From Bacteroidota bacterium (GTDB lineage: Bacteria; Bacteroidota; Ignavibacteria; UBA10030; SZUA-254), in the NCBI GenBank assembly GCA_035524335.1, contig DATKPE010000003.1, forward strand, positions 2,902 through 66,901: a DNA stretch of 64,000 nt. Reading direction: 5' to 3'. The position numbers and the translations under genes are program-made. Every line of letters starts with the position of its first letter. The stretch's first letter is position 1. This document shows positions 39,402 to 57,698 of this stretch, piece by piece. The notes under the pieces were generated by a model. It had not been told where the DNA came from. It saw nothing but the letters and a program-made list of their open reading frames with translations, and did not search any database.

Positions 39402-40208
39402 TCATCCCGGATTCCGGCCGTACTTGACGGCAATCAGCTGGGCCGCGATGCTGACGGCGATTTCTTCGGGAGTATGCGAGCCGATGGAAATTCCCACCGG
39501 GGCGAAGACCGGTGCGAGCAGTTTCCGGTCGATTCCGTCCGCGAGGAGCCGGTCGAAGAGTTCCCGGACCTTTTTCGCACTGCCGAGGAGTCCAAGATAC
39601 CGGCACTCTTTGCCGAGGCAGGCCCGGATAGCCTGTTCATCATACTTGTGCCCGTGTGTCATGATGACGATGAAGGTCTCCGGAGAAAATTCGATATGTT
39701 CTGCGATATCGCGGATAGGGGTACAGACGGTGCGGGAGGCGCCCGGATGTTTTTGTGCCGTCGACCACTCCTCCCGGTCGTCGAGCACCGTGACGGTGAA
39801 ACCGCACCGAGATGCGAGCGATGAAAGAGCGGCGCCGCAGTGTCCGCCGCCGACGATGTACAGCGGCGCTCCGGTGAACAGCGGCTCGATGAGAATTTCC
39901 TGCCATCCTCCGCACACCATGCCGGTCTTCTCGGCATCCGCGCCGCCGTCGCCAAGATCATAGCACCAATGCGCAAGCAGAGCCGGCCGTTCCCGCATGA
40001 TCCGGTCGATGACTCTGCGTTCGATCTCCCCGCCTCCCACGGTCCCCGCGCGCCGTCCCGTCCGGTCGACGATCATCTTCATGCCCGGTTCCACCGGCGT
40101 TGAACCGTCTGTCGCAATGACCGTCGCGATCCAGACCGGCGTCCGCCGGAGTTCCGCGTCGGCGAGCAGGCCGTAGAACGCCGCCGGGCCGCTTCCGTCA
40201 TCAATCAT
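39402..40208 (-). CDS. xdhC: XdhC/CoxI-family molybdenum-hydroxylase maturation (Mo-cofactor insertion/sulfuration) protein
   Basis: Track ORF trimmed to ATG 40208 (MIDDGSGPAAFYGLL), 10 nt after the mocA stop. An N-terminal XdhC_CoxI-like segment (VIATDGSTPVEPGMKM) is followed by a Rossmann segment (LYIVGGGHCGAALSSLASRCGFTVTVLDDREEW). Confidence 0.8.
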   Translation of the reverse strand: MIDDGSGPAAFYGLLADAELRRTPVWIATVIATDGSTPVEPGMKMIVDRTGRRAGTVGGGEIERRVIDRIMRERPALLAHWCYDLGDGGADAEKTGMVCGGWQEILIEPLFTGAPLYIVGGGHCGAALSSLASRCGFTVTVLDDREEWSTAQKHPGASRTVCTPIRDIAEHIEFSPETFIVIMTHGHKYDEQAIRACLGKECRYLGLLGSAKKVRELFDRLLADGIDRKLLAPVFAPVGISIGSHTPEEIAVSIAAQLIAVKYGRNPG

Positions 40209-40218
40209 ATCATGCCTC

Positions 40219-40818
40219 TCATCGTTCGACAGCAGTATTGAACCTGGCCGCATCGGCCGGTGAGTTGAGGTTTCCGAGAATGCCGATGTCCCTGCAGGCG
40301 GTGTAGCAGATCTCCGATCCCGTTCCATGCAGTACATCCTTCAGCCGAAGGCCCTTGTCCGCCCGCAGTATCCGGGCAAAGAGATTCCGGGGAATCACGA
40401 TCGGATGACCAGCCTGACGGTTCAGCGAGGGAATGATGACTGCCTCCGGCCGCAGAGCCGATTTGTGCAGGAGCAGCTCATAGGTGGCCGGCGCCACGAG
40501 CGGATGATCGACCGGTATCAGGATCACCTTCTGCTTGCCGGCAAAATGAGCGAGGCCGACTTGCACGGAGGAGAGCATTCCGGATTCGGGCGACGGATTG
40601 ACGGCGACCGGAAGATTCGGGAAGGTATCCGCGATCCAGTCCGTGTCGGCCGGTCTCAGAATACAGATCAGGTCCGTCACGCCGGCTGCGGCAACCGCGT
40701 CGGTGATCCGTTCAATGAAATAGACGCCCCCCGCCTTCATCCGTACTTTCGGGGTGCCCATGCGGGCGCCGTTGCCGGCCGCAAGAACGATGGCTCCGAC
40801 CGATCCTGTCCCGGTCAT
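40219..40818 (-). CDS. mocA: MobA-like nucleotidyltransferase, MocA-type molybdenum cofactor cytidylyltransferase
   Basis: 199 aa. The N-terminal AIVLAAGNGARMGTPKV motif matches the NTP_transf_3/MocA family. ATGA overlap with the upstream PLP-enzyme gene. Confidence 0.75.
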   Translation of the reverse strand: MTGTGSVGAIVLAAGNGARMGTPKVRMKAGGVYFIERITDAVAAAGVTDLICILRPADTDWIADTFPNLPVAVNPSPESGMLSSVQVGLAHFAGKQKVILIPVDHPLVAPATYELLLHKSALRPEAVIIPSLNRQAGHPIVIPRNLFARILRADKGLRLKDVLHGTGSEICYTACRDIGILGNLNSPADAARFNTAVER

Positions 40819-42275
40819 CCGCCGGACCCTGTACGCCTGTTGAATTCACCGATCATGCTTTCAATCCGGGCGGATTCATTCACAAACACATCGTGCCAGA
40901 ATTCGGGCGACCATTGGCGGTTCAATTCCTCCAGCGATTTTCCCTGCTGTTCCACCCACGTATAGTATTTGAGATTGTGAATCGCCTTCCGATCATAATA
41001 CCCGAGTTCCCGGAAAAAGTCAATCCTCTGGTGAAGAAGAGCCGCACCGTGATCGGCGGCGGCGTGCATGAGGGAATAGTTCCCTTTCTCGCCGCGCAGT
41101 TCCAGAAGCCGGGAACCGTACATCTCCGTCGAATCGGTAAAAATGGTAAAAATAACGTCCTGCGGTCCAAGCTCGTAATATCGCGCGGTTTTTATCGCCG
41201 CAAGCAGGTTGCCTATCCCCGAGATGCCAAGGAGCGGCAGGTTCGGGAGTATGGATGGATTGACGCCGATGGAGGTGAGGTACCGGACTCCCTCCGGTTC
41301 ATTGAAGAGCCGGAGAACCCTCATGCAATCCTCGTCGTCCACCGCCGCGATGCAGTCGGTATTCCGGACATTGTGGACCCAGGGCACATGTTTGTCCCCG
41401 ATGCCCTCGATCCGGTGTGCGCCGAATCCGTTCATCAGAAGCGTCGGGCACTGAAGCGCTTCCGCGGCCACGACCTGCAGGCGGGGAAACTGCATTTTCA
41501 GATAATCGCCTGCGGCAATGGTGCCGGCGGAACCGGTGGCGGAGACGAATGCCGCCGGTGAAGCCGACACCCCGCGGAGAGAGCGGAAAACCTCCTCCAC
41601 CGCAGGACCGGTGACATTGTAATGAAAGATCGGATTGCCGAATTCCTCGAATTGATTGAAGATGACATTCCGGGGATCTTCCTTCAGTTCCCAGCACTTG
41701 TCGTATATCTCCTTCACGTTCGATTCGCAACCGGGGGTCGCGATCACCTCGGCGCCGATCTTTTTCAGCCATTCGAACCGTTCCTTCGACATCTGTTCGG
41801 GAAGGATCGCGATCGGCGTGCACCCGAGCACCGCGCAGTCGAACGCACCGCCCCGGCAGTAATTGCCGGTGGAGGGCCAGACCGCTTTATGGACAGCGGG
41901 ATCGAACTCGCCCGATACCAGCCGGGGCACCAGACATCCGAACGCAGCCCCCACCTTGTGCGCACCGGTGGGAAAATATTTTCCGACCAGGCCGATGATC
42001 CGGGCCGGGACGCCGGTGATCGAGGAGGGAATTTCGAGCTGATTGACACTCCCGAATCCGCCGGTCGCAATATCGTTCTTCCAGGTGATGCGGAAAAGAT
42101 TCAGCGGGTCGACATCCCACAGACCGATGCGGGACAGTTTCGCCACGAGGCCGGGGGGCAGGCTTCCGGGGTCGCGCATCTGCCGGAAGGTCGGGATCGT
42201 GATGCCCCGTTCGCGGCACCGGGCCGCGGTTCGTGCGATGACGGCGTCGCGCGCCGATTGACTGACTACTGCCAT
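40815..42275 (-). CDS. Atypically long (486 aa) fold-type-II PLP-dependent enzyme (Trp-synthase-beta/cysteine-synthase superfamily), function unknown
   Basis: The candidate PLP-lysine block YFPTGAHKVGAAFG is TrpB-like (TGAHK). STGNYCRGGAFDCAVLGC is followed by a GSAGT-like loop (ATGSAGTIAAG). An N-terminal extension of about 100 aa and a C-terminal extension of about 130 aa surround the core. Strong SD (GGAGAGAGGAGAG) upstream. Confidence 0.6.
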   Translation of the reverse strand: MAVVSQSARDAVIARTAARCRERGITIPTFRQMRDPGSLPPGLVAKLSRIGLWDVDPLNLFRITWKNDIATGGFGSVNQLEIPSSITGVPARIIGLVGKYFPTGAHKVGAAFGCLVPRLVSGEFDPAVHKAVWPSTGNYCRGGAFDCAVLGCTPIAILPEQMSKERFEWLKKIGAEVIATPGCESNVKEIYDKCWELKEDPRNVIFNQFEEFGNPIFHYNVTGPAVEEVFRSLRGVSASPAAFVSATGSAGTIAAGDYLKMQFPRLQVVAAEALQCPTLLMNGFGAHRIEGIGDKHVPWVHNVRNTDCIAAVDDEDCMRVLRLFNEPEGVRYLTSIGVNPSILPNLPLLGISGIGNLLAAIKTARYYELGPQDVIFTIFTDSTEMYGSRLLELRGEKGNYSLMHAAADHGAALLHQRIDFFRELGYYDRKAIHNLKYYTWVEQQGKSLEELNRQWSPEFWHDVFVNESARIESMIGEFNRRTGSGG

Positions 42276-42293
42276 GTGCTCTCTCCTCTCTCC

Positions 42294-43463
42294 TTAACGT
42301 GTGACAGCGTGCCGGAGGAACGATCCGACATCCTTTTTCCGCGACATCAGGATCATCGCGGCGATGACGAACGGCTTGAAGCTTGCCTCACGGTACGTGG
42401 CAAGCCGGTAGCGTTCGAAGACATTCTTCGCGACCTCTCCCTGGGCACAGCTCACGCCCGAAATATCGGCAGGCAGACAGTGCATATAGAGCGCATTCCC
42501 GCCTGCGGTCAGCCGCATCCGGCTGTCGGTACATTCCCAGGAGGTATATCGCGCATTGTTCGCAAGACACTCCTTCTCCAGCGCGGCAAGCCCCGTCTTG
42601 TCCGATTTTTTCAGCAGTTCGGTTCTCCGTTCCATGACCTGCAGGGGCGCCCACGATTTCGGATAGACGATGTCTGCATTCCGGAAGGCGTCCTCCATCG
42701 TCGGCGCGATCTCGAATGTTCCCCCGCTTGCCGGAGCCTGCCGGCGCGCACGCTCCACGACATCGGGGAGCAGGTCATACCCCGGTGGCGCCGCCAGGGA
42801 AACGTGCATGCCGAATCGCGTCATCAGCCCGATGATCCCCTGCGGCACCGAGAGCGGCTTGCCGTAACTCGGCGAATATGCCCAGGTCATGGCGATCTTT
42901 TTTCCCCGGAGCGCCTCCGCGGATCCGAAATGCGTGATGAGGTGGACGAGGTCTGCCATGGCCTGTGTCGGATGATCGATATCGCACTGAAGATTGATGA
43001 CGGTCGGCCGCTGGTGCAGCACGCCTGCGTCGTATCCCTCGCCGACGGCGTCACTGACCTCGCGCATGTAGGAATTGCCCTCCCCCAGATACATATCATC
43101 CCGGATGCCGATCACCTCGGTCAGAAACGAGATCATATTCGCGGTCTCCCGCACGGTCTCGCCGTGGGAGATCTGCGACTTTTCCTCGTCCAGATCTGCG
43201 AGCGCAAGTCCCAGCGCGTTGACGGCAGATGCGAAGCTGAAGCGGGTCCGGGTCGATTTGTCCCTGAAGACCGATATCGCGAGACCTGTGTCGTAGAGCC
43301 GGAATGATTTGCCGTGCCGGTGCATTTCGCTCAATATTTCCGCGAGCAGGGCGAGGGTGCGGATATCCTCATCCGACTTGTCCCAGGTGAGAAGAAAGTC
43401 TTCTCCGAAACTGCCGGCGGGCGCGGGTTGACAGCGTTCAATAAGCGTGTGGAGATGGGTCAT
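42294..43463 (-). CDS. ygeW: YgeW-family knotted carbamoyltransferase
   Basis: 389 aa, collinear with E. coli YgeW as remembered. Matching blocks: DFLLTWDKS, ISVFRDKSTRTRFSFASA, HGETVRETANMISF, KKIAMTWAYSPSYGKPLSVPQGIIGLMTRFGM, YMHCLPADISGVSC. Confidence 0.9.
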   Translation of the reverse strand: MTHLHTLIERCQPAPAGSFGEDFLLTWDKSDEDIRTLALLAEILSEMHRHGKSFRLYDTGLAISVFRDKSTRTRFSFASAVNALGLALADLDEEKSQISHGETVRETANMISFLTEVIGIRDDMYLGEGNSYMREVSDAVGEGYDAGVLHQRPTVINLQCDIDHPTQAMADLVHLITHFGSAEALRGKKIAMTWAYSPSYGKPLSVPQGIIGLMTRFGMHVSLAAPPGYDLLPDVVERARRQAPASGGTFEIAPTMEDAFRNADIVYPKSWAPLQVMERRTELLKKSDKTGLAALEKECLANNARYTSWECTDSRMRLTAGGNALYMHCLPADISGVSCAQGEVAKNVFERYRLATYREASFKPFVIAAMILMSRKKDVGSFLRHAVTR

Positions 43464-43472
43464 AGGTATCCG

Positions 43473-43967
43473 TCATGAATTGAAGGAATGGGAACGGAGC
43501 GCGTGCTCCTGATAGTACGGGATCACCGACTCGACGGCATCGACGATCTGCTGGTATCCGGTACAGCGGCAGAGATTGCCGTAGAGGGCACGGCGGATCT
43601 GATCACGGGTCGGGTTCGGATGCCGGAGAAGAAACGCATGCGCCGTCAGGATCATTCCGGGCGTGCAGAACCCGCATTGGACGGCTCCGGCCGAGATAAA
43701 CGCCTCCTGAAGCGGGTGGAGCGTACCGTCGGTCCGGGCCATACCCTCGATGGTAAGGATTTCAGCGCCCTCCACCTCGGCAAGGCGGCGGGTGCAGATT
43801 TTCATCGGCTCGTCGTTGATGAGGATGGTACAGGCGCCGCAGGCGCCGATATCGCACGCATTTTTGGTGCCCGTCAGACCGAGATCTTCCCGGAGAAAAT
43901 CGACCAGACGTTTTCCGGCGAGTGTTTCGTCGGCAAAGACGGTTTTTCCGTTCACGGAAAATTTCAT
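43473..43967 (-). CDS. [2Fe-2S]-binding small subunit of a molybdenum hydroxylase (CoxS/XdhC-Ecoli type)
   Basis: 164 aa. Plant-type cluster motif CDIGACGACTILIN and second cluster motif CRCTGYQQI. ATGA overlap with the Mo-subunit gene. Confidence 0.9.
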   Translation of the reverse strand: MKFSVNGKTVFADETLAGKRLVDFLREDLGLTGTKNACDIGACGACTILINDEPMKICTRRLAEVEGAEILTIEGMARTDGTLHPLQEAFISAGAVQCGFCTPGMILTAHAFLLRHPNPTRDQIRRALYGNLCRCTGYQQIVDAVESVIPYYQEHALRSHSFNS

Positions 43968-46255
43968 GCCTGCACCTCCTCCCGCCGGGGAACCTTCGTC
44001 TGGACCGGAAACCGGATCGGCAGACTGTAGAACCGCCGGCCGGTCGCATTGCAGACCGCGTTGGCGATTGCCGGCGCCATGATTTCATTTGCCGGTTCAC
44101 CCAGACTCTTCGCGCCGGAGGGCGATACCGGATCGTGATTCTCGATGATGATCGCCTTCATCGGCGGAAGATCCAGCGTGCGGGATATCCGGTAGGTGTT
44201 GAGATTTCTGTTGGCGATGATGCCATTGTCGGATTTGACTTCTTCGTGCAGTGCGTAGCCGATGCTCATGGCCATACCGCCATAAATCTGTCCGAGCACC
44301 ATCTCCCGGTTCACCGCCCTGCCGATATCGTGTGCGGCGACCGCATTGAGAAGCCGGATTTTGCCGGTTGTCCTGTTCACCGTCAGTTCGACGGCCTGAC
44401 AGCCGTAGACCCAGGTGAAATATGCCTTTCCCTGGCCGGTATGCTCATCCCACGTCACCTGCGGCGCGCGGTAGACGCCGAGAGCGTACGGAAACTGCTG
44501 ATGACTGTACATATAGGCGATCGCCTCGCTAAAGGAGACCGATTCGCCGTTCGCGGCGCGGACTCTTCCCCCGGAAAATGTGACTCCCTCCGGAACAGTC
44601 GACAGCTGTTCAGCCACCGACCGCGCGATCGTCCGCTTCAGCTCCGCTGCGGCCTGACACACCGCTCCCCCGCCCATGATCGTCCCCCGCGAAGCGACCG
44701 TGGTGCCGCTGTCGGGTATGACGGATGTCGACGACCTGCGGTACCGGATCGTATCCGCCGGGATCCCGAGCTCCTCCGCGAGGAGCAGGATCATCGCCGT
44801 TTCAGATCCCTGTCCGTTTTCATGGACGCCCGCCTCCAGGATGACGGAGCCGTCGGCCTGCACGTTGACGATCGCTGCGCAGAAATCGACTCCCTCGGCA
44901 CCCAGACTGACTCCCCGGTAGCTCATTGCGAGCCCGATGCCGTACATCTCCTCCTCCGTTCCCTCCCCGCGGGTCGCCCGCTTGAGCTTCGTCTCATAAT
45001 CAATCTCTTTCAGAACCGCATCGAGCACCTGACCCATCGCAACAGTGTGGGTATCGAGCTTCTGGCCCGTGATGGTGACGCTGTTCTGCTTCACCATGTT
45101 GAGTTTCCGGAACGCCACCGCCGACATGCCGAGTTTTTCCGCCGCAAGCTCCACCATCTGCTCGACGACGAAATTCATCTGCGGCGATCCGAAGCCTCGC
45201 ATCGCGCCGGTCACGACATTGTTCGTGTAGACGCCGGTCGTATCGCATTGGACGTTCCCGACCACGTACGGACCACAGCACTGCACCGTCGACCTCCAGG
45301 TCACCCAGGGAGTCACCGAGCAATACGCACCTCCGTCTGCCACAATGGTGCATCTGACAGCCGTGATTTTTCCCGATCTGGTCACCCCCATCGCATAATG
45401 GACTTTATAGGGGTGCCGCTTGTAGCTCTCCCGGATCGACCAGTCCCGCGTATATCTGATTTTCACCGGCCTGCCGGTAAGTCTCGCCGCGAGTGCGGCA
45501 CGTGCGCAGACCACGGCGGCGGTGTCATCCTTGCCGCCGAACCCGCCGCCCAGCGGCGTACCGACGATCTCGATATCGGCAAGCGGTACGCCCAGACACG
45601 CCGCGGTGAAACGCCGTGTGCTGAACGGATGCTGCATACTGCCGTATATTTCGATAACTCCGTCTCCCCGCGGTATGGCGACGGCCACCTCCGTTTCCAT
45701 GTACGCATGCTCGACGAACTGCGTCTGAAAATCGTGCTCGAGGATGACATCGGCCTCCCGCATTCCCCGTTCGGCATCCCCCCTGCGGACCCTGTGCGTG
45801 TTGATGACGTTCGATCCGTGCTGTTCGTGAATGAGCGGTGCGCCGGGGGCCAGTGCATCGGTCGGATCCAGCACCCGCGGGAGGGGCTCCGCATCGAGAC
45901 GGACGTATTTCGCGGCCTGCATCGCGGCTTCGCGCGATTCCGCCACGACCACGGCGATCACGTCACCGTTATATCTGATTTTGTCGTCCGCAAAGATCCT
46001 GTAATCGCGGATGATCTGCCCGACCCGGTTGGAACCGGGAACATCCCGCGCGGTCAGAACACGCACGACGCCGGGGCATCGTTCCGCCTCCGCCGTTTCG
46101 ATCGACCGGATCCTGGCGTGCACTTCGTCGCTGTACACCGGAACCGCATGCAGGAGATCCGCAAAATGCAGATCGTCCGTAAACTTCGCCGCACCGGTCA
46201 CTTTGGCCCGCACGTCATTGCGCCAGCCTGAATTGGTCAACCCGGACATAACCAT
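43964..46255 (-). CDS. Molybdopterin-binding large subunit of a xanthine-dehydrogenase-family hydroxylase (no FAD subunit adjacent)
   Basis: 763 aa. KVTGAAKFTDD N-terminus, with GGGFGGKDD, MRGFGSPQ and PSGAKSLGEP blocks. The start is ATG 46255 or 46249, overlapping the hyuA-like stop by 13-19 nt. Confidence 0.85.
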   Translation of the reverse strand: MVMSGLTNSGWRNDVRAKVTGAAKFTDDLHFADLLHAVPVYSDEVHARIRSIETAEAERCPGVVRVLTARDVPGSNRVGQIIRDYRIFADDKIRYNGDVIAVVVAESREAAMQAAKYVRLDAEPLPRVLDPTDALAPGAPLIHEQHGSNVINTHRVRRGDAERGMREADVILEHDFQTQFVEHAYMETEVAVAIPRGDGVIEIYGSMQHPFSTRRFTAACLGVPLADIEIVGTPLGGGFGGKDDTAAVVCARAALAARLTGRPVKIRYTRDWSIRESYKRHPYKVHYAMGVTRSGKITAVRCTIVADGGAYCSVTPWVTWRSTVQCCGPYVVGNVQCDTTGVYTNNVVTGAMRGFGSPQMNFVVEQMVELAAEKLGMSAVAFRKLNMVKQNSVTITGQKLDTHTVAMGQVLDAVLKEIDYETKLKRATRGEGTEEEMYGIGLAMSYRGVSLGAEGVDFCAAIVNVQADGSVILEAGVHENGQGSETAMILLLAEELGIPADTIRYRRSSTSVIPDSGTTVASRGTIMGGGAVCQAAAELKRTIARSVAEQLSTVPEGVTFSGGRVRAANGESVSFSEAIAYMYSHQQFPYALGVYRAPQVTWDEHTGQGKAYFTWVYGCQAVELTVNRTTGKIRLLNAVAAHDIGRAVNREMVLGQIYGGMAMSIGYALHEEVKSDNGIIANRNLNTYRISRTLDLPPMKAIIIENHDPVSPSGAKSLGEPANEIMAPAIANAVCNATGRRFYSLPIRFPVQTKVPRREEVQA

Positions 46256-47592
46256 TTCCCTTTCGGTTCTGTTCCCGGAATAAGTTCATTTTTCCTCACG
46301 ACCTCACGCCCGCCCAGAAAGACATGCTCGAAGCTCAGCGTCGAATGCCGGTCCGGATAGGTTTCATGGACGTTGCTGATGGAGGACCAGACCGGCCTTT
46401 TCCCTCCCTGCGGATCGACAACGGCAATATCTGCGTCTGCACCGGGACGGAGGCTTCCCTTTCGCGGAAAGACGCCGAGCAGTTCTGCTGGCGCGGCGGA
46501 ACAGTGACGCGCCATCGCCCGGAATGCCTGATCCCCCCGGGGACGGAAAAGATCGAAGACGATGTGGGACAATGCGCCGATCCCTGCCACGCCGTTGGGA
46601 ATCATGCGGATATCAGAAACCGGCCGGTCCTTGTCCGCGCGCATGAACGCACAGTGATCGGTCGCAAAAAGATCGATGCTCCCTTCGCCGGCGTAAACGG
46701 CGAGTTTCCGCCGCCGCCCCTCGTCTCTCAGGGGGGGTGAACAGAGCCAGCGATGACCGCCGGGCCGCGTGAGAACATCCTCGCTGTGGACGATATACTG
46801 CGGACAGGTTTCGCAGGTGATCGACTGTGACCCGCGCGCCGCGGCAATCAGTTCGACGCCTTCGGGGGTGGAGACATGGACGATATGGATCCGTGCATTT
46901 TCGGCTCTGGCGATTCCGATGAGCCGCTCAATCGCCACGATTTCTGCCTCGGGAGGACGAAGAAGTGTGTGCGTGAACGGCTCACGGAGCGGATACAGAT
47001 CCGACGGTATCCCTTGCAGAACAGCCTCGTCTTCGCAGTGGATCAGAAACCGCACTCCTCTCCCCGCCAGCCGCCGGAACAGAGACACTATGTCATCATA
47101 GGAGGCATAGATCCCGGCGTGCTTATAGGTCGTGTAGAGTTTGATCGACCGGAATCCGCTGTCGACCGCGGTCACAATGTCGCCCCAGCCCTGTTCGTCA
47201 AACCGTGTCGGCGTCAGGTGCCAGAAATAATCGGTGAAGCAGTTCCGTTCCGCTTTGGAGCGCGCCCGTCCGATCGCTTCGCCCAGCCGTTCCTGCCCGG
47301 ATTGGGTGATGAAGGTCGCGATGGCGGTGATGCCGTTCCGGACCGCCGCTTCGGTCCCGCTTCGATACCCGTCGGCCAGAGGATATCCGCCGATAACATC
47401 ATCCAGATGCGTATGGATGTCAATCAGGCCGGGCAGGACAAATTTCCCGCCGGCATCGATAATCTCATCGGCATCGGACGACGGGAGCGCCTCGCCGATC
47501 AAACTGATGACGCGGTTTTCAACGGCGAGATCGGCTTTTCGCAATCCCTCGTCCAGACAGACAACGCCGTTTTTTATTATCAGCATGCTCAT
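46237..47592 (-). CDS. Cyclic amidohydrolase, D-hydantoinase/dihydropyrimidinase family (HyuA/YgeZ-like)
   Basis: 451 aa. The metal-binding motif is PGLIDIHTHL. The carboxylated-Lys region is SIKLYTTY. HIVHVS, ETCPQY and ATDHCAF blocks are present. Confidence 0.8.
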   Translation of the reverse strand: MSMLIIKNGVVCLDEGLRKADLAVENRVISLIGEALPSSDADEIIDAGGKFVLPGLIDIHTHLDDVIGGYPLADGYRSGTEAAVRNGITAIATFITQSGQERLGEAIGRARSKAERNCFTDYFWHLTPTRFDEQGWGDIVTAVDSGFRSIKLYTTYKHAGIYASYDDIVSLFRRLAGRGVRFLIHCEDEAVLQGIPSDLYPLREPFTHTLLRPPEAEIVAIERLIGIARAENARIHIVHVSTPEGVELIAAARGSQSITCETCPQYIVHSEDVLTRPGGHRWLCSPPLRDEGRRRKLAVYAGEGSIDLFATDHCAFMRADKDRPVSDIRMIPNGVAGIGALSHIVFDLFRPRGDQAFRAMARHCSAAPAELLGVFPRKGSLRPGADADIAVVDPQGGKRPVWSSISNVHETYPDRHSTLSFEHVFLGGREVVRKNELIPGTEPKGKWLCPG

Positions 47593-48812
47593 GGTATCCG
47601 CAGAGAAGCCAGAACATCCTCGTCCGCCGGAATGGTACGCGGAACGGGAAGTGATCTCATCGGCGCGTCGATATCCTTCAGCCCATGCCCCGTGATAAGG
47701 AGAACGACCTGCTCCGAGGGATGAAGTGCTCCCGCCGCGGCGATTTTTCTGACGCCTGCGACCACGGCCGCGGCGGCAGGTTCCGCAAATATTCCCTCGC
47801 TCTGCGCAAGAAGCCGCTGTCCCTCCAGGATCTCCCGGTCCGTCACGATAACCGTCCCTCCGGAAGTGGCAAGGACAGCTTCCCGGGCCAGGTGAGCGTT
47901 CGACGGAACGGAGACGGAGATCGAATCCGCAATCGTGTCCGGTTTCTGCGCACTGCGATATACCCCGGAGAGGATATACCGATGAATCGCCGAGGAAGTG
48001 TTCGCCTGTACGGAAAACAGCCGCGGCATTTTTTTGATCACCCGCGCCTGAAGCAGATCGTAAAAGGCCTTGTAGACTCCGAACAGGATGACGCCATCCC
48101 CCACGGGAATAAAAATCGTATCGGGGACCTTCCAGCCGTTCTGGGCAAAGATTTCAAAACCGACTGTTTTCTTCCCCTCGATGGTCAGGGGATGATAACC
48201 GGTATTCCGGTTCAGACCCCCGCGCAGTTTCGTAAAGGCGAGCGACATCCGGAACGCATCATCATACGTTCCCCTGACCGGAAACACCTTTGCCCCGAAC
48301 ATGAGCATCTGGACCAGTTTGGCTTTCGGCGCCTTCTCGGGGACGAAGATGACCGCACGGCGGTGTGCCGATGCCGCAACCGCTGCGAGCGCGCTCGCCG
48401 CGTTGCCGGTGGAGGCGGTGACGACCGTCGGGGCCCGCAGTCGGCCGGCTTCGGCAACTACCAGAAACGATGCGCGGTCCTTCAGGGAGCCGCTGGGATT
48501 GAGTCCATCGTTCTTGAGCCAGAGATGCCTGCACCCGATTGCTTTGCCGAGTCCGCCCGCGGGCGTGAAAGGAGTGTTCCCGACCGGATACGGAGGATAA
48601 TATTTCGACTCCACTGCGGAAAAAAGATCCCACCGGGCATTCGACCGGGAGAATTTTTTCCGGATGGTCTCGTAATCAAACTCTGCGGTCAGGACGCCGC
48701 AGAGGGGTTCGCCCGGTTTCCAGAGATGTTCGCACGTCGGGCAGAGATACCGTACTTCATTCCGCCTGTACGACGCCCCGCAATGAGAACAGCGATATCT
48801 GAATTCTGTCAT
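47589..48812 (-). CDS. Threonine-synthase-like fold-type-II PLP enzyme with N-terminal zinc ribbon
   Basis: 407 aa. The N-terminal zinc ribbon is CSHCG...CPTCEH. The PLP-lysine block is NPSGSLKDRAS. STGNAASALAA and PVGDGV blocks are also present. ATGA overlap with the hyuA-like start. Confidence 0.7.
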   Translation of the reverse strand: MTEFRYRCSHCGASYRRNEVRYLCPTCEHLWKPGEPLCGVLTAEFDYETIRKKFSRSNARWDLFSAVESKYYPPYPVGNTPFTPAGGLGKAIGCRHLWLKNDGLNPSGSLKDRASFLVVAEAGRLRAPTVVTASTGNAASALAAVAASAHRRAVIFVPEKAPKAKLVQMLMFGAKVFPVRGTYDDAFRMSLAFTKLRGGLNRNTGYHPLTIEGKKTVGFEIFAQNGWKVPDTIFIPVGDGVILFGVYKAFYDLLQARVIKKMPRLFSVQANTSSAIHRYILSGVYRSAQKPDTIADSISVSVPSNAHLAREAVLATSGGTVIVTDREILEGQRLLAQSEGIFAEPAAAAVVAGVRKIAAAGALHPSEQVVLLITGHGLKDIDAPMRSLPVPRTIPADEDVLASLRIP

Positions 48813-48829
48813 GGAATGTCCCCTGCCTC

Positions 48830-50038
48830 TCAGATCTTTCCGTTCATCCTGGCAATAAACGCCGCATAGAATGAAGAAGCGGCGCTCAGGTGTTCGACGG
48901 GGCAGGCCTCGTTCGCCGCATGGGCGTAGACTTCATTACCCGGCCCGAGACCGAAACAGGGAATCCCGTGCATACCGGCAATGGCGACCCCGTTCGTGCT
49001 GAAGGTCCATTTGCCGACGACCGGTTCGCGCCCGATCGTCGCGCGGTACGCCTCGACTGCCTGCCGCAGATAGGGGGACGATTCCTCCATCACCCATGTG
49101 GGAAAGTATTTCTCCGTCTGATAGACTTTGCCGGTGTAGGCACGTTCAGCATACGTCAGGACGGAGACCTGGGCGTCGGGGTAGCCGGCCGTCCGGGCTG
49201 CGGCCTGAACTTCCGCGATGGCGCTTTCCTTCGTTTCGCCCGCGGTCAGCCGGCGGTCCAGATGAATGCCGGCACCGTCGGGGACGGCGCACAGCGAGGG
49301 GGACGACGAGACCGATTCCGTCACGGTGACGGTTCCCTTGCCGAGGAACGGATCGGACCGCAGACGTTCATTCAGTTTTTCGATCTCGAGCGCGATGCGC
49401 GCGATTTTGTAGATCGCGTTATCCCCCCGTTCGGGTGCGGAGCCGTGACAGCTTTTTCCCTTCACATCGACGTGCATCTCCATTCTGCCGCGATGTCCGC
49501 GGTAAATGTTGAGATTCGTCGGCTCCGTGATGATGACAAGCTCCGGCCGGAGGCGCTCTTCTTTGATGAGATACTGCCAGCAGAGCCCGTCACAATCCTC
49601 CTCCATGACGGTGCCGGTCAGGTAGACCGAAAACTGATCGTTCAAATTCAGTTCCTTCACGAGCGAGGCGGCGCTGATCATGCAGGCCATCCCCCCCTTC
49701 TGGTCGACCGTCCCCCTTCCCCAGATTTTTCCTTCCGCCACTTTCGGGACGAAGGGATTCGAATGCCACTGATCCAGATCGCCGGGATAGACCGTATCGA
49801 TGTGCGCATCGAACGCGATGGCTCTCGGTCCACGACCGATCCGCCCGATGATGCTTCCCAGGCCGTCGATCCTGATCTCTTCCACCCCCGCCCGTTCCAT
49901 TTCACGCCGGATCACGTCGACGACATCCTTTTCCTTGCCGGAAAACGACTGCGTTTTCACGAGCTCGGATAAAATCCGCACCGTCTCGGGCTCCTGCTCC
50001 TTTGCACGCCGCTGAATATTCTGATAGAGAGTCTCCAT
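48830..50038 (-). CDS. ygeY: YgeY-family M20 metallohydrolase
   Basis: 402 aa, collinear with E. coli YgeY as remembered. Matching blocks: AFDAHIDTV, GRGTVDQKGGMA, GTVMEEDCDGLCWQY, YRGHRGRMEMHVDVKGKSCHGSAPERGDNAIYK, KWTFSTNGV. Confidence 0.9.
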   Translation of the reverse strand: METLYQNIQRRAKEQEPETVRILSELVKTQSFSGKEKDVVDVIRREMERAGVEEIRIDGLGSIIGRIGRGPRAIAFDAHIDTVYPGDLDQWHSNPFVPKVAEGKIWGRGTVDQKGGMACMISAASLVKELNLNDQFSVYLTGTVMEEDCDGLCWQYLIKEERLRPELVIITEPTNLNIYRGHRGRMEMHVDVKGKSCHGSAPERGDNAIYKIARIALEIEKLNERLRSDPFLGKGTVTVTESVSSSPSLCAVPDGAGIHLDRRLTAGETKESAIAEVQAAARTAGYPDAQVSVLTYAERAYTGKVYQTEKYFPTWVMEESSPYLRQAVEAYRATIGREPVVGKWTFSTNGVAIAGMHGIPCFGLGPGNEVYAHAANEACPVEHLSAASSFYAAFIARMNGKI

Positions 50039-50047
50039 ACTGCTCCT

Positions 50048-51403
50048 TTATGTTTGCGAAGATGAAAGCCGCTTCCACACTGCGGCGGCAAGCTCACGGG
50101 ATCGCCGGCAGATGCGCTCCTCGTCAATGGTGTCCGGAAATCGTTTTCCCTCCATGCGTATCTGCCCCGCCACCACGGTCGTATCGACCTCCGCATGCGC
50201 CATCCCGTACAGCAGGTGTCCGCAGAAATTTGCCCGGGTCAGCGGCGTCGTCGGCAAATAGTCGAGGAGGATGACATCCCCGGCGGCGCCCGGCGCGATG
50301 GTTCCGATCGGCAGTCCGAAAAGACGTTCCGCGATTTTCGGATTGTTGTCGAGGAGCGCGCTTGAAATCTCCCCGAAACCCCTGGAGGGACCGCCGGCGC
50401 GAAGATGCTGGGCCCAGACGCCCGCACGCGCCTCTTCGGGCATCCGGGCAGTCATTGCATCAGTTCCGAGGCCCACAAGCACACCCCGTTCCGCCAGGAG
50501 CGGGATATCGGCGATGCCGACGCCGTTGTTCAGATTCGACTGCGGATTATGGACCGCGATCGAATCCGTGCCGGCAAGGAGATCGATCTCGGAAGCCGAA
50601 AGATGCACACAATGTGCGGCGATCGTCCGGGGACCCAGAATGCCGTAATGGTTGAGACGTTCGACAACCTTCATTCCGAATTCCCGCCCGGTGATTTCCT
50701 GATCGGCAGATCCCTCCGCGCAATGAATATGAAATCCGCTCCCTATCGATCTTCCGGCTTCCGCCGCGTCCCGGAGCGTCGCCTCGCCGAGCGTGAAGCT
50801 GGCATGGAGGCCGAACAATCCGCCGATCAGCCCGCCGTTTTGTTCCCTGCAGTGCTTCAGAAACGAGACGTTTTCCGCGATGCCGTCCGCCGCGACATCC
50901 CGTCCGTCTCGATCCGATACCTCATAGCAGAGACAGGTCCGGATTCCGGTCATGGAGGCCGCATCTTCAAGAGCCGTGAGCGATCCTTCGACCGACCGGG
51001 GACTGGCATGATGATCGATCACCGTCGTCGTCCCGTGACGGATCGAATCGAGATAGAGCAGGAGTGCGCTGTACGCGCAATCCTCAAGCGTCAGCACGGA
51101 GTCGAGCTTCCACCAGAGATTGTGAAGAATATCAGGGAAACCAGCCGATGGCCGGATGCCGGGAATTCCGCGCGCGAAGGCGCTGTAGCCGTGGGTGTGG
51201 GCATTGATGAAACCGGGGAGCAGAATCTTTCCCCGGGCGTCGAGCGTCCTGTCCGGCCTGACCGGAGGCCGATGATCCGACACCAGGCCCGTGATCACAC
51301 CGCCCTCTATCAGAAGGCCATGATCGGCAAGCAGTTCTCCGGCCGATCCTCCGGTCCAGATCGTTGCGTGGTCAATAAAAAGACTGCCGTCGCCCGGTTT
51401 CAT
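50048..51403 (-). CDS. ssnA: SsnA-family aminohydrolase (amidohydrolase superfamily, chlorohydrolase-like)
   Basis: 451 aa. Blocks: LPGFINAHTHGYS, LHNLWWKLD, TTTVIDHHASP, FHIHCAEG, GLGTD. The start directly abuts the upstream stop (51403/51404). Confidence 0.85.
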   Translation of the reverse strand: MKPGDGSLFIDHATIWTGGSAGELLADHGLLIEGGVITGLVSDHRPPVRPDRTLDARGKILLPGFINAHTHGYSAFARGIPGIRPSAGFPDILHNLWWKLDSVLTLEDCAYSALLLYLDSIRHGTTTVIDHHASPRSVEGSLTALEDAASMTGIRTCLCYEVSDRDGRDVAADGIAENVSFLKHCREQNGGLIGGLFGLHASFTLGEATLRDAAEAGRSIGSGFHIHCAEGSADQEITGREFGMKVVERLNHYGILGPRTIAAHCVHLSASEIDLLAGTDSIAVHNPQSNLNNGVGIADIPLLAERGVLVGLGTDAMTARMPEEARAGVWAQHLRAGGPSRGFGEISSALLDNNPKIAERLFGLPIGTIAPGAAGDVILLDYLPTTPLTRANFCGHLLYGMAHAEVDTTVVAGQIRMEGKRFPDTIDEERICRRSRELAAAVWKRLSSSQT

Positions 51404-53905
51404 TCATCCCTCCCTGAACACCGACAGTTCCGCCCGGGATCTCGGTCTCATCGCGATCGCGCCCGAAAAACATTTCTGTGCACAGAGCGAACAGCCGACA
51501 CAGAGAGACGGATCGAACTCCGGGACGATGCGCCGGTTCATCGTGATCGCGAGATAGGGACAGCGCGCGCAGTTTCCGCAGTGACAGCAGAGACTCTCCG
51601 TCACGGCCGGGATCGTCCTGGTGGCCGGAAGCATGTCGAAAGGAATGATCGGCTGGGGAAGGGACGAACCGATGAGATCTCCGACCGACGCATATCCACG
51701 GGCATGGAGAAAATGGCTGAGACCGGAGTGCAGTTCATCGACGATCCCGAGGCCGTATTTCATCACGATGGTACAGCACTGCACCGTTTCAGCTCCCAGG
51801 GCGAGGAGCCGTGCCGCTCCTCTGTAATCCATGACCCCGCCGTTTGCTGAAATCGGGACACCGAGCCCCGATGCCTTCGCAACCACGAGGCTGGTTATCG
51901 GGAGAACACCTTCACCGGACATGCCGATGACGACTCCCTCCTCCCGCGCACCGTTCCCCTGCGTGCGGTAGGCCATCGCCGGAAAACTGTTCGCCAGTGT
52001 GATGCCGGCCTTTTTGCCCGGATATTTGCGGAGGACGTCCGCGATTGCCGTCACGATCGGCCCGATCGCCGTCACCGCACCTGTCAGCTTGAAGAGCTTG
52101 GGAATCTCCGGATCGCCCGATTCCATGACCCACCCGACAATCCGGGCTGTCAGCTCCGCATCCTGCGAGACCATGTCACCCTTCGTTCCGTCTCCCCCCT
52201 GAGGGCAGGAGAGGCTGTACTCGACTCCCATCGCACCGGCCCGTTCCAGCTTCGCGGTGTTCGCCTGCCAGACGCGGCGATCGGCTGTCTCACGGCCGCT
52301 CACCGGTCCGCCGGTCGAACCGAGGGTCAGGCGGTCGGGATATTCTCTGACAAGCCGTTCAATTTCACGGCAAACCCTGTCGAGCTGATGTCCCGAAACG
52401 TTGTCGCAGTTTCCGTACGTGGACGGCGCGAGAACGTACATGTATTCGGAGGGAATGTGAATGGGGACCCTGTCGAATGCGGTTTTCATCACTCCGCCCG
52501 CCCAGCCGCGTTCATAGGCGGCGCGCATCTGTGCATACCCGTCGGTATGCGGCGCGGCGGAAAGAAGGAACGGCGACGCAATCGCTTTTCCAAAAAACTT
52601 TGTCGTCAGACCGACCGGAAGCCCGGAAACACCTTCCATGATGACGGGCGCCGGTGCGGAATTGCACGGGCGTTTCTTTGCGGTGCCTCTCAGATACCTG
52701 TCGGCACAATCAGCCGCCTTCTTCCCTGATGCCACCGCTTCAACGACCGTTGAGGATTCTCCTGTGAGATCTCCCGCGTAAAACAGTCCCGGGGTTTTCT
52801 GCCTCGCCGTCCGGGAAACCGCGCCTATCGCGGTAATCACAATATCGAATTCCCGGAAATACGGCGGTTCTGCTTTCCGGGGGTGGAAATTTTCGGGGTG
52901 ATCTGACGCTCCCGGCCGGAGAGTAAGGTGTACAAGCCGGAGTCCGCGGACCTTCCTGCCTGCGCAGACAAGTTCCACCGGACGGGTACTGCCCGTCACT
53001 TCAATGTTCTCTTCGACCAGCATTTCCCGTTCGGCGGCGGTCAGAGGCATATTCAAAGGCCTCCGCCGGTAGATCAGCTCGACATGTGCGGCGCCGCGGC
53101 GCTTTGCGGTCACTGCACAATCGACCGCAACCGCGCCGCCCCCGATCACCGCCACCTTCAGGTTCCTTATTTTTCTCCGGTACTTCGGCGAAAGAAAAGT
53201 CTCCCATCCTATTGCTTTCCCGGCGCCGGGAATGTCCAGTCGAACCGGCTCCTCCTGACCGGATGCGATGATCACCGCTCTGCAGGAACTCCCCAGCATC
53301 CGCTCCGGGTGCCCGATCTTCTGAGCATACATGAATCTGACGCTACCAAGCGACCGGATGAATTCTATATCGGCATCGATGAACCCGCCGGCGAGACGAA
53401 AACCGGGAATGAGACGGGTCATGCCGCCGGCATGGTTCGATGTTTCATGAATTGTCACCGCATAGCCGCGACGGGTAAGAACCGCTGCGGCGGCAAGCCC
53501 TGCCGGACCGGCGCCGATGACCGCGACATTCTCCCCGTTCCCGGGAACAGACCCGACCCTGAGCGGACCAGCATTCCGGGCCCGGGTGATGATGGTCGCC
53601 TGGACCGCGGGAATTGCAACAGGAGTAGTAAAGCCGTTGTAGACACACGCCTTCATGCAGAACTGATCCGGACAGACGATGCCGCAGACAGTTCCCAGGG
53701 GATTCGCACCCAGAATCATCAGGGCCGACCGGCGAAAATCCGCCGCTGTGCCGCCGCGGGCCGCCATGATAAAATCGGCGGGGGAGCAGTGAGCCGGGCA
53801 TGCCTCCCGGCACGGCTTCTCCTCGCAATATTCACACTTCACCAGCTCAGCTTTCAGCTGTGCGTCGGTGAGAATTCCCGGAAGATGCGTCGGTTTTCTT
53901 GTCAC
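51404..53905 (-). CDS. Fused Fe-S flavoenzyme: GltD/PreT-like NAD(P)H-FAD module plus dihydropyrimidine-dehydrogenase/PreA-like TIM barrel plus 2x[4Fe-4S] ferredoxin tail (DPD/YgfK-like reductase)
   Basis: 833 aa. GTG start inside a GTGA overlap with the xdhB stop. The N-terminal Cys cluster is CEYCEEKPCREACPAHC. The two dinucleotide folds are VAVIGAGPAGLAAA and VAVIGGGAVAVDCA. The DPD-type active-site loop is YSLSCPQGGDG. The C-terminal clusters are CCHCGNCARCP and CVGCSLCAQKC. Confidence 0.8.
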   Translation of the reverse strand: MTRKPTHLPGILTDAQLKAELVKCEYCEEKPCREACPAHCSPADFIMAARGGTAADFRRSALMILGANPLGTVCGIVCPDQFCMKACVYNGFTTPVAIPAVQATIITRARNAGPLRVGSVPGNGENVAVIGAGPAGLAAAAVLTRRGYAVTIHETSNHAGGMTRLIPGFRLAGGFIDADIEFIRSLGSVRFMYAQKIGHPERMLGSSCRAVIIASGQEEPVRLDIPGAGKAIGWETFLSPKYRRKIRNLKVAVIGGGAVAVDCAVTAKRRGAAHVELIYRRRPLNMPLTAAEREMLVEENIEVTGSTRPVELVCAGRKVRGLRLVHLTLRPGASDHPENFHPRKAEPPYFREFDIVITAIGAVSRTARQKTPGLFYAGDLTGESSTVVEAVASGKKAADCADRYLRGTAKKRPCNSAPAPVIMEGVSGLPVGLTTKFFGKAIASPFLLSAAPHTDGYAQMRAAYERGWAGGVMKTAFDRVPIHIPSEYMYVLAPSTYGNCDNVSGHQLDRVCREIERLVREYPDRLTLGSTGGPVSGRETADRRVWQANTAKLERAGAMGVEYSLSCPQGGDGTKGDMVSQDAELTARIVGWVMESGDPEIPKLFKLTGAVTAIGPIVTAIADVLRKYPGKKAGITLANSFPAMAYRTQGNGAREEGVVIGMSGEGVLPITSLVVAKASGLGVPISANGGVMDYRGAARLLALGAETVQCCTIVMKYGLGIVDELHSGLSHFLHARGYASVGDLIGSSLPQPIIPFDMLPATRTIPAVTESLCCHCGNCARCPYLAITMNRRIVPEFDPSLCVGCSLCAQKCFSGAIAMRPRSRAELSVFREG

Positions 53906-56241: not shown

Positions 56242-57698
56242 GATCGCATCCCTCCCGCCGCGACATGATCACTGTAGAATTTCAGCAGAAGATTGCGCGC
56301 CACCCGCGTCCGGAAGTGCGCCGATCCTCTCACGTCCGTCAACGGCCGGAACTCGTCCGCAAGCATTTCCATCGCTCCGGCGATCAGATCCTCCGAGAGA
56401 ATGTTTCCCTCGAGGACCGATTCGGCGGACCGTGCACGCCGGGGACGGTCATCCATTCCTCCATAGGCAAGGATCACACCCGAAACGTTCCCGCGCTCCG
56501 TCTGGCGGAATCGGACAGCACAACTTACAGCGGCGATATCGACATCGGGCCGGCGGGAAACCTTGTACCAGTACAGATGTTCGTCGGCGCCGGGCAGAGG
56601 CAGGACGACCGCCGTTACCAGTTCGGCGGCTCCGCGCGCCGTCTTCCGGTATCCGACGATGAATTGCTCAACCGGCACCCGACGCCTCCCGCCGCGACCG
56701 GCGAGTTCGACCTCCGCTCCGAGCGCGATGAGAAGCGGCACCGTGTCTCCAACGGGCGAGGCCGTCGACAGATTTCCCCCAAGCGTTGCAAGATTCCGGA
56801 TCTGATGGGAACCAAACGTCTCTGCCAGCGTTCGGAGAACCGGGATGACGTCTCCGGCATTTCGGGCGATCTCGTTGATCGTCATGCCGGCTCCCAGACG
56901 GAGAGAGTTCCCCTCCCTCCGCCACCCGTGAAGTTCCTCCACCGCCGAAAGATCCAGAATTACCGGTAACTGCTCGAATTTCTTGGTGACTCTCAGTGCG
57001 ACATCGGTGGCTCCGTTGATAATCACCGCCTCCGTCGTATCGGCGAGAAACGCAAGCGCCTCGGCGAGTGACGACGGGCGGGCGTATTTCCGGCCGCCGC
57101 TCTCGAGCAGGAGATTCCCGGCGTGGAGAGTCCGCAGGGACTCCAGGCAGGTCCGGTTTTCCTCAGCTTCGCTCACCGGGTCGTACCGCTCGTAGGCCTT
57201 CGCCACGCCGTTCAGGATCGACTGATAGCCGGTGCACCGGCAGAGATTTCCGACCAGAGCATCTTCCACCTCGGTCCTCGACGGGCGCGGATTGTTTTTC
57301 CAGAGATTGTAGAGCGACATCACTATCCCGGGGGTGCAGTATCCGCATTGACTGCCGTGGGAGTGCATGAGGGCGTCCTGCAGGGGATGAAGCTTCCCGC
57401 GCATGCGGGCAAGATATTCCACCGTCAGGAGAAGCCGACCGTGGAGCATCGGAAGAAACAGAAGACAGGAATTTACGGCGCGAAAGCGGATCTCCCGATC
57501 GGGGCCGATATCGGCAAGGACAACGGTACATGCCCCGCAGTCTCCTTCCGCACATCCCTCCTTCGTTCCGCGATACTCCGGGCATGAACGGAGATATTCC
57601 AGCACGGTCGTCGTCACCGTGTATCCTGCATCGTTCGGAAAGTCGATCCTTCGCGTTTCCCCGTTCAGGGAAAATATGACCGATCGTTCCGCGTTCAT
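56238..57698 (-). CDS. xdhA: Xanthine dehydrogenase small subunit (2x[2Fe-2S] plus FAD-binding domains, Rhodobacter XdhA type)
   Basis: 486 aa. Cluster motifs CAEGDCGACTV and CRCTGYQSI, followed by an FAD_binding_5-like domain (ATLGGNLSTASPVGD). SD gaaAGGAGGgag lies immediately upstream of ATG 57698. Confidence 0.9.
   Translation of the reverse strand: MNAERSVIFSLNGETRRIDFPNDAGYTVTTTVLEYLRSCPEYRGTKEGCAEGDCGACTVVLADIGPDREIRFRAVNSCLLFLPMLHGRLLLTVEYLARMRGKLHPLQDALMHSHGSQCGYCTPGIVMSLYNLWKNNPRPSRTEVEDALVGNLCRCTGYQSILNGVAKAYERYDPVSEAEENRTCLESLRTLHAGNLLLESGGRKYARPSSLAEALAFLADTTEAVIINGATDVALRVTKKFEQLPVILDLSAVEELHGWRREGNSLRLGAGMTINEIARNAGDVIPVLRTLAETFGSHQIRNLATLGGNLSTASPVGDTVPLLIALGAEVELAGRGGRRRVPVEQFIVGYRKTARGAAELVTAVVLPLPGADEHLYWYKVSRRPDVDIAAVSCAVRFRQTERGNVSGVILAYGGMDDRPRRARSAESVLEGNILSEDLIAGAMEMLADEFRPLTDVRGSAHFRTRVARNLLLKFYSDHVAAGGMRS

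Follow-up and report, generated by a model that had tools for sequence, protein, structure and literature searches.

The gene considered here lies in a 64,000-nucleotide stretch of DNA (the window; GenBank assembly GCA_035524335.1, contig DATKPE010000003.1, positions 2,902 to 66,901 of the forward strand) from a Bacteroidota bacterium of the GTDB lineage Bacteria; Bacteroidota; Ignavibacteria; UBA10030; SZUA-254. It encodes a putative pyridoxal phosphate (PLP) enzyme, termed PALP486, and a translation check confirmed the 486-residue open reading frame (ORF) that the original prediction had placed at 40815-42275. It is encoded on the minus strand; read on the plus strand, the frame is closed by numerous stops. 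With thousands of homologues, the best at E = 0, the ORF is far beyond chance. The predicted junctions with the flanking genes were also borne out on reading the sequence. The ygeW stop codon (TAA, 42296-42294) and the PALP486 ATG at 42275 are 18 nucleotides apart, with an AGGAG Shine-Dalgarno motif in the gap, and the PALP486 stop overlaps the mocA start as ATGA (−4 nucleotides). These two genes are the immediate neighbours and, as first reported, no OrtA-like small ORF adjoins PALP486.

Profile assignments placed PALP486 in a 13-gene operon. Read from 57698 to 39402, the operon encodes XdhA, XdhB, a dihydropyrimidine dehydrogenase (DPD)-like reductase of the fused GltD/PreA type, SsnA, YgeY, a ThrC-like enzyme, a D-hydantoinase, a second molybdenum (Mo) subunit, an iron-sulfur (FeS) subunit, YgeW, PALP486, MocA, and XdhC. 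The operon is that of the reductive uric acid (2,8-dioxopurine) pathway. Two molybdenum hydroxylases are present within it. One (53902-57698) is a bona fide xanthine dehydrogenase (XDH), XdhA/XdhB, with both subunits over cut-off; the other (43473-46255, minus strand) is a second pair of Mo and 2Fe-2S subunits that comes without a flavoprotein subunit and is presumably the urate-to-2,8-dioxopurine reductase. A carbamate kinase (YqeA equivalent, over cut-off) is encoded outside the operon, at G000:C10:6443-7366. The coordinates of the features are collected in Table 1.

The oxygen-free urate pathway was solved in 2025 for E. coli and Clostridium (10.1101/2025.05.19.654654; 10.1101/2025.04.24.650524). 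In the published scheme, XdhD/XdhAC reduce urate to 2,8-dioxopurine, YgfK reduces the ring, and SsnA and HyuA act as the two ring-opening enzymes. The two ureido groups are then taken off by YgeW (with carbamate kinase) and YgeY, and YgeX, also called DpaL, converts 2,3-diaminopropionate to pyruvate. The pathway intermediates have been proposed to be of R (D) configuration (PMC12990295), and E. coli DpaL accepts both isomers according to the 2025 pathway work. PALP486 is not one of the eight characterised pathway enzymes, nor is it orthologous to any of them.

Table 1. Features of the PALP486 locus, in window coordinates
Feature	Coordinates	Strand	Basis or remarks
13-gene operon	39402..57698	-	Profile assignments
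ThrC-like PLP enzyme, 407 aa, recurrent PALP486 partner	47589..48812	-	Family assignment
YgeW, knotted carbamoyltransferase, upstream neighbour	42294..43463	-	NF005538, 624 bits against a cut-off of 453
Spacer from ygeW stop to PALP486 start, 18 nt	42276..42293	-	GGAGAGAGGAGAGAGCAC; AGGAG Shine-Dalgarno 7 nt before ATG
PALP486, fold-type-II PLP enzyme, uncharacterised long CysK-family branch (predicted)	40815..42275	-	ORF, Pfam PALP, AlphaFold2 model, fold
N-terminal helical extension, ~residues 1-45, without CysK counterpart	42141..42275	-	
PALP core, residues 102-330	41286..41972	-	S135-T-G-N-Y-C-R loop, Q208-F209, G248-S-A-G-T, G291-I-G-D-K-H
K107 codon, predicted PLP Schiff-base lysine, in PTGAHKVGAA	41957-41955	-	Aligned to the genome's own CysK paralogue
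C-terminal helical extension, ~residues 390-486, without CysK counterpart	40818..41108	-	
ATGA overlap	40815..40818	-	PALP486 stop TGA 40817-40815, mocA ATG 40818-40816

PALP (PF00291) was the sole Pfam match to PALP486, covering residues 102-330 with 65.5 bits against a cut-off of 35, which places the protein in this family. No curated NCBIfam family cut-off was passed. The best NCBIfam models were cysK, cysKM, and cystathionine β-synthase (CBS), with E values of 1e-31 to 1e-24 and scores of at most about one-third of the cut-offs: cysK (TIGR01139) gave 109.9 bits (1.3e-31) against 350.95, and CysKM (TIGR01136) gave 106.2 bits against 344.15. Models for SbnA, DpaL, ThrC, and IlvA were much weaker, SbnA (TIGR03945) reaching 46.3 bits against 349.95 and the DpaL/YgeX models TIGR01747 and NF006058 reaching 11.9 against 274 and 14.6 against 276 bits, respectively. 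The TrpB family was absent among NCBIfam matches up to an E value of 0.1. The nearest solved sequences were cysteine synthases, at ~25-29% identity across the core. Homologues carry the label “cysteine synthase” (Joint Genome Institute, JGI) or “pyridoxal-phosphate dependent enzyme,” and feature and shape searches of a protein atlas returned solely unnamed clusters with the latter label. Because no NCBIfam cut-off was reached and the genome holds separate CysK-family paralogues, the profile data support the view that PALP486 is an uncharacterised PLP enzyme, neither a housekeeping cysteine synthase nor a TrpB2.

An AlphaFold2 model of PALP486, built from a 51-sequence alignment, had a mean predicted local distance difference test (pLDDT) score of 95 and a predicted template modelling score (pTM) of 0.94. 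It was compared with known structures using Foldseek and an exhaustive VIA search, the rankings of which agreed. Template modelling (TM) scores by target of 0.80-0.86 were obtained with the CysK branch (CBS, Fn1220, β-cyanoalanine synthase, and DcsD), with Z scores in the range of 34-36 over ~300 residues. The top VIA Z scores were for Fn1220 (36.3), CapA1 (34.4), OAS-TL (34.0), CmnB (33.7), CBS (32.7), and SbnA (31.4), followed by dehydratases and racemases at 25-27 (serine and aspartate racemases at 25-26), DpaL at 23.7, and TrpB at 21-22. The fold, together with the carboxylate loop, the Q-F motif, and the phosphate loop, places the modelled protein in the CysK/CBS/SbnA branch of fold-type-II PLP enzymes, not with TrpB or DpaL; for TrpB, the lack of a profile match and a Z score well below that of the CysK branch agree. 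PALP486 had been described as TrpB-like. This was correct for the lysine block, PTGAHKVGAA, which is present and is unlike SxKDR, but not for the protein overall, which is CysK/CBS-like (cysK match at 1.3e-31 and none to TrpB; Z of 31-36 versus 21-22). Since CysK chains align to model residues ~44-389, the N- and C-terminal extensions come to ~45 and ~95 residues, plus internal insertions, and are shorter than the ~100 and ~130 residues first proposed. A complex prediction with YgeW (A3) and PALP486 (A2) returned a score of 0.00, which gives no answer and was used in neither direction.

Alignment with the CysK paralogue of the same genome set TGAHKVGAA against TGSIKDRMA and K107 on the Schiff-base lysine. 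K107 does not vary among 25 orthologues, and its conservation is still at least 90% in the alignment of 51 sequences, which includes remote paralogues. The STGN loop, Q208, the GSAGT loop, S352, and four cysteines (C114, C140, C194, and C276) are likewise invariant in the orthologues. PALP486 thus has in common with the CysK branch the lysine position, the carboxylate loop, the Q-F motif, the glycine-rich phosphate loop, and the serine at PLP N1. It differs from CysK in having GAHKVG in place of SxKDR, in the additional terminal residues, in its low identity and missed cut-offs, and in its context, which is purine catabolism rather than sulfur assimilation. Both extensions are conserved to the same degree as the core; the conserved positions are P28, F30, and P36, followed by P57, N59, L60, R62, and W65, in the N-terminal region and E423, L424, K436, Y437, W440, E442, W455, and W460 in the C-terminal extension. 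A further difference is that GIGDKH replaces the GIGAGF of CysK and the GIGYDF of CBS. The Asp-Lys-His of GIGDKH would be situated at the place of the leaving group or second substrate, where it may suit a polar nitrogen substituent.

A pattern scan of one genome per species revealed at least ~600 stretches with a PALP486 orthologue. Orthologues are 57-79% identical; the species genomes that carry them number at least ~600, span more than 15 phyla, and include Bacteroidales. Almost all of the orthologues lie in 2,8-dioxopurine gene clusters. Same-length homologues with 70-79% identity are abundant. Gene neighbours were analysed in the 80 best stretches (57-72% identical), which comprise 41 loci of at least 15 kb and come from Ignavibacteriota, Bacteroidota, Acidobacteriota, Verrucomicrobiota, Elusimicrobiota, Planctomycetota, Spirochaetota, Myxococcota-type organisms, Cloacimonadota, Fibrobacterota, Bacillota, Chloroflexota, SAR324, and others. 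Two Ignavibacteria-type loci show identical synteny; in seven relatives and in more distant members of the phylum it is rearranged but kept. In the 41 long loci, the recurrent neighbours were a YgfK/DPD-like reductase (28 loci; YgfK confirmed by profile at 902 bits), SsnA (27), the XDH Mo subunit (25), ThrC-like and YgeW/OTC-type proteins (~20 each), YgeY (18), and HyuA (10), together with MocA, carbamate kinase, and the FeS and FAD subunits of XDH. Apart from these pathway families, none recurred in more than four of the long loci, and clustering of 861 ORFs from the 80 loci gave no recurrent additional family. The few neighbours scanned with Pfam did not include serA or serC, although no profile search aimed at these two genes was made. 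The commonest immediate neighbours are ThrC-like, YgfK, YgeW, and SsnA, and ygeW lies directly upstream in many loci. One locus (L041) is a bare ygeW-PALP486 pair, and another, from SAR324 (L088), reads arcC-ygeW-ygeY-dpaL-PALP486 with no Mo enzyme nearby. The original prediction had named a housekeeping orthologue lacking conserved linkage to ygeW or Mo-hydroxylase genes as the result that would speak against it; when this was checked, the linkage was found to be conserved across many phyla.

The association also extends to whole genomes. Of 31 relatives, 15 carry PALP486, and the same 15, without exception either way, carry SsnA. Of 151 genomes sampled evenly from the phylum, 11 have PALP486, all of them among the 13 with an SsnA match, and the five genomes that carry PALP486 away from the cluster all have SsnA elsewhere. 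By contrast, YgeW was over cut-off in only 2 of the 31 relatives. The suggested co-occurrence with ygeW therefore holds as linkage to the pathway, but across genomes PALP486 goes with SsnA (15 of 15) and with the entire pathway rather than with YgeW strictly defined. The counts carry less statistical weight than their size implies, since the genomes are related and not independent, but the pattern holds across phyla. Co-location and genome-level co-occurrence with SsnA and the other pathway genes make PALP486 part of the 2,8-dioxopurine cluster, and there is little doubt that it is a dedicated member of this pathway variant. The version of the pathway that contains PALP486 suggests a step absent from the published E. 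coli/Clostridium scheme.

Relatives without YgeW over cut-off carry a divergent YgeW-like carbamoyltransferase (L012:292-1143; also L013, L015, and L024), which is 42% identical across 314 tblastn-aligned residues and scores 253 bits against the cut-off of 453. Several loci encode two carbamoyltransferases.

The proposal that PALP486 replaces YgeX is doubtful. DpaL is indeed missing from this genome, which is 100% complete, and from 9 of the 11 PALP486-containing genomes of the phylum sample. However, DpaL adjoins PALP486 in two loci, L044 (Thermoanaerobaculia) and L088, and two genomes (G180 and G192) retain PALP486 together with DpaL, no ThrC-like gene having been found in them. Furthermore, ThrC-like orthologues are encoded in all 15 PALP486-containing relatives and in 12 of 16 other genomes. 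The ThrC-like gene directly flanks PALP486 in at least 17 of the 80 loci, and the two are adjacent in much of Bacteroidales. Among the 16 genomes, 11 had the ThrC-like gene only, 2 had DpaL only, 1 had both, and 2 had neither, which is suggestive for a small sample. Since DpaL coexists with PALP486 and the ThrC-like enzyme accompanies it, the simplest reading, a loose one given the size of that sample, is that YgeX is usually replaced by the ThrC-like enzyme and not by PALP486, which would have a further function. PALP486 is almost always found together with the ThrC-like enzyme or with DpaL itself and is probably not a plain YgeX substitute.

The ThrC-like enzyme itself passes the generic thrC model and is a paralogue of a housekeeping ThrC on contig C47. 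It tends to alternate with DpaL across genomes and, elsewhere, adjoins PALP486 more often than any other gene does.

One intact SsnA-containing genome of the phylum sample (G065) lacks PALP486, and its operon is syntenic with those of relatives. In the slot where PALP486 would be expected, flanked by the PreA-like reductase and YgeY, lies an additional canonical CysK-family gene (L114:17489-18589), which scores 348 bits with the cysKM model, above the cut-off of 344. This gene is distinct from the three other paralogues of that genome and has no orthologue in the 31 relatives. Because a canonical CysK-family gene is found in its place, the slot seems to require CysK-type chemistry, that is, formation of a PLP-aminoacrylate from a β-substituted alanine, with or without capture by a nucleophile.

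By analogy with its structural relatives, we tentatively favour the proposal that PALP486 is a CysK-type enzyme that cleaves or exchanges the Cβ-N bond of albizziin or 2,3-diaminopropionate. K107, as an aldimine, and the conserved carboxylate loop would bind an α-amino acid, and expulsion of a nitrogen-linked β-substituent would form the PLP-aminoacrylate. Such an enzyme needs a free α-amino group, and of the pathway intermediates only 2-amino-3-ureidopropionate (albizziin) and 2,3-diaminopropionate carry one; these would for that reason be the likeliest substrates. They would arise after YgeW and YgeY had stripped one or both ureido groups from 2,3-diureidopropionate. The aminoacrylate could then be hydrolysed to pyruvate and ammonia or captured by a second nucleophile. 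PALP486 would act beside a second PLP enzyme, ThrC-like or DpaL, and would not be YgeX renamed. The proposal is put forward because only two intermediates have the free α-amino group, because of the chemistry of the branch, and because of the putative GIGDKH pocket.

With regard to that chemistry, Cβ-N bonds of diaminopropionate derivatives are the established business of CmnB, SbnA, and aspergillomarasmine synthase, and DcsD (O-ureidoserine synthase) is an enzyme of the CysK branch that handles a ureido nucleophile. SbnA and CmnB, which are O-phosphoserine-dependent and make N-substituted 2,3-diaminopropionates, share the fold of PALP486 and work at the diaminopropionate Cβ-N bond, as is proposed for PALP486, CmnB having the longest aligned span (model residues 13-416). 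They differ in being only 16-20% identical to PALP486 and biosynthetic, acting in the opposite direction; the SbnB/CmnK-type partner of those systems is absent at PALP486. YgeX/DpaL is likewise a fold-type-II PLP enzyme of the same pathway cluster but is distant by profile and fold and coexists with PALP486 in L044 and L088. The early comparison was with OrtB, the PLP subunit of 2-amino-4-ketopentanoate thiolase, which is of similar size and belongs to the same superfamily, but neither an OrtA-like ORF nor ornithine-fermentation genes lie beside PALP486.

Several observations weigh against Cβ-N cleavage or exchange by PALP486. CysK-family enzymes are normally L-specific, and the D configuration proposed for the intermediates is the main difficulty. 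YgeY is usually accompanied by a second candidate lyase, so that there is no obvious need for a further enzyme to act on either albizziin or diaminopropionate. The position of PALP486 next to mocA-xdhC would equally fit a role in cofactor maturation. About one-quarter of the long loci have no pathway neighbours inside 10 kb; in these isolated loci (from Elusimicrobia, Opitutales, and others), housekeeping genes alone surround PALP486. Finally, neither of the two 2025 pathway papers mentions PALP486 or a second PLP enzyme, and the published pathway is complete without PALP486. The label “candidate missing step” in the original prediction must for this reason be given up in favour of an extra or alternative step of a pathway variant.

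As an alternative, PALP486 could itself be the terminal 2,3-diaminopropionate ammonia-lyase, standing in for YgeX without being its orthologue, with the ThrC-like enzyme doing something else. The rarity of DpaL in PALP486-containing genomes would agree with this, as would a compact operon (L012; Mo, FAD, and FeS subunits, reductase, SsnA, PALP486, YgeY, and carbamoyltransferase) in which PALP486 is the sole PLP enzyme. This is an unlikely reading, given that PALP486 is kept where DpaL is present or even adjacent, that the ThrC-like enzyme accompanies it in most genomes, and that its fold is nearer to β-replacement enzymes than to DpaL. There is a comparably small chance that PALP486 and the ThrC-like enzyme form another exit, with β-replacement by sulfide or phosphate yielding cysteine or O-phosphoserine, or that PALP486 is a sulfur-delivering factor for a selenium-free urate-reducing Mo enzyme. 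A racemase or epimerase that converts D-albizziin or D-diaminopropionate to the L form for an L-specific downstream lyase would agree with the R/D configuration proposed for the intermediates. Fold-type-II racemases exist, with Z scores of 25-26 for those acting on serine and aspartate, and two PLP enzymes are present here, as against a single one in E. coli, which takes either isomer. However, the fold and motifs of PALP486 are closest to those of β-replacement enzymes, and it is kept alongside DpaL, which in E. coli needs no such help with either isomer, making racemization improbable.

In another alternative, PALP486 could supply sulfide or cysteine for the Mo=S ligand as the selenium-free counterpart of the SelD/YqeB/YqeC route. 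The published pathway is described as requiring SelD/YqeBC, and every gut strain with the cluster in Liu et al. has both YqeBC and SelD. In the present 100%-complete genome, no SelD over cut-off, no YqeB, and no YqeC were found, and the urate operon for this reason appears to be selenium-independent; 28 of the 33 PALP486-containing genomes examined lack YqeB. Consistent with sulfur donation are also the cotranslation of PALP486 with mocA and xdhC in the window, the top structural match, Fn1220, which is an H2S-producing CysK homologue, and the canonical CysK copy that replaces PALP486 in G065. Against this, five genomes have both PALP486 and YqeB, in the same cluster in one of them (G178), and PALP486 tracks SsnA and is also encoded in lower-pathway modules that have no Mo enzyme nearby (L088 and L041). 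Known molybdenum cofactor sulfurases are, moreover, NifS-like enzymes of fold type I. On balance, sulfur donation by PALP486 is quite unlikely. That PALP486 is simply an ordinary cysteine synthase or CBS, present in the operon by chance, would agree with the JGI label of its homologues but is highly improbable: the cysK score is 110 bits against 351, the genome holds separate CysK/CBS paralogues, and the distribution is patchy in the same way as that of SsnA.

Other associations of the family were also observed. Remote full-length paralogues, ~34% identical, occur in other contexts (L117:7001-8407 and L118:5644-8395). One (P0228) adjoins ATP sulfurylase/APS kinase and a sulfotransferase, and another (P0230) is divergently oriented next to a 390-residue PALP gene, echoing the pairing of a long with a short PALP protein. 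Three more (P0124, P0157, and P0188) are on short contigs, with a MoaA-like gene beside P0124 and nothing informative beside the other two. No ornithine-fermentation (OrtA/OrtB) context was found around any of these five. A PduS-like flavo-FeS protein (Complex1_51K, SLBB, Fer4_17, RnfC_N) adjoins PALP486 in several relatives (L013:5919-7850; L011, L016, L017, and L030), as does, in the same relatives, a ~183-residue protein that by eye alone has the look of a PduT-type tandem-BMC shell protein. Both are absent from the window; they may serve to feed electrons into the Mo enzyme that lacks FAD. In three loci (L010:6603-7751, L017:6579-7664, and L030:8948-10000), a gene for a YhcG/DUF1016 PDDEXK nuclease is inserted directly beside PALP486.

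No role was found assigned to the PALP486 family in the literature. Neither the type of enzyme nor the pathway is new in itself; their combination and the step that it implies are. The anaerobic urate pathway is being pursued for probiotics against gout and hyperuricaemia and has been described as selenium-dependent and as ending with YgeX. PALP486 marks a version of this pathway that usually lacks YgeX and the selenium-trait marker YqeB and that has one or two unstudied PLP enzymes instead. Assignment of its reaction would complete the pathway for most environmental and many gut carriers and would bear on the order and stereochemistry of ureido cleavage. It would also correct the pervasive mis-annotation of these proteins as cysteine synthase and improve the calling of urate degraders in metagenomes.

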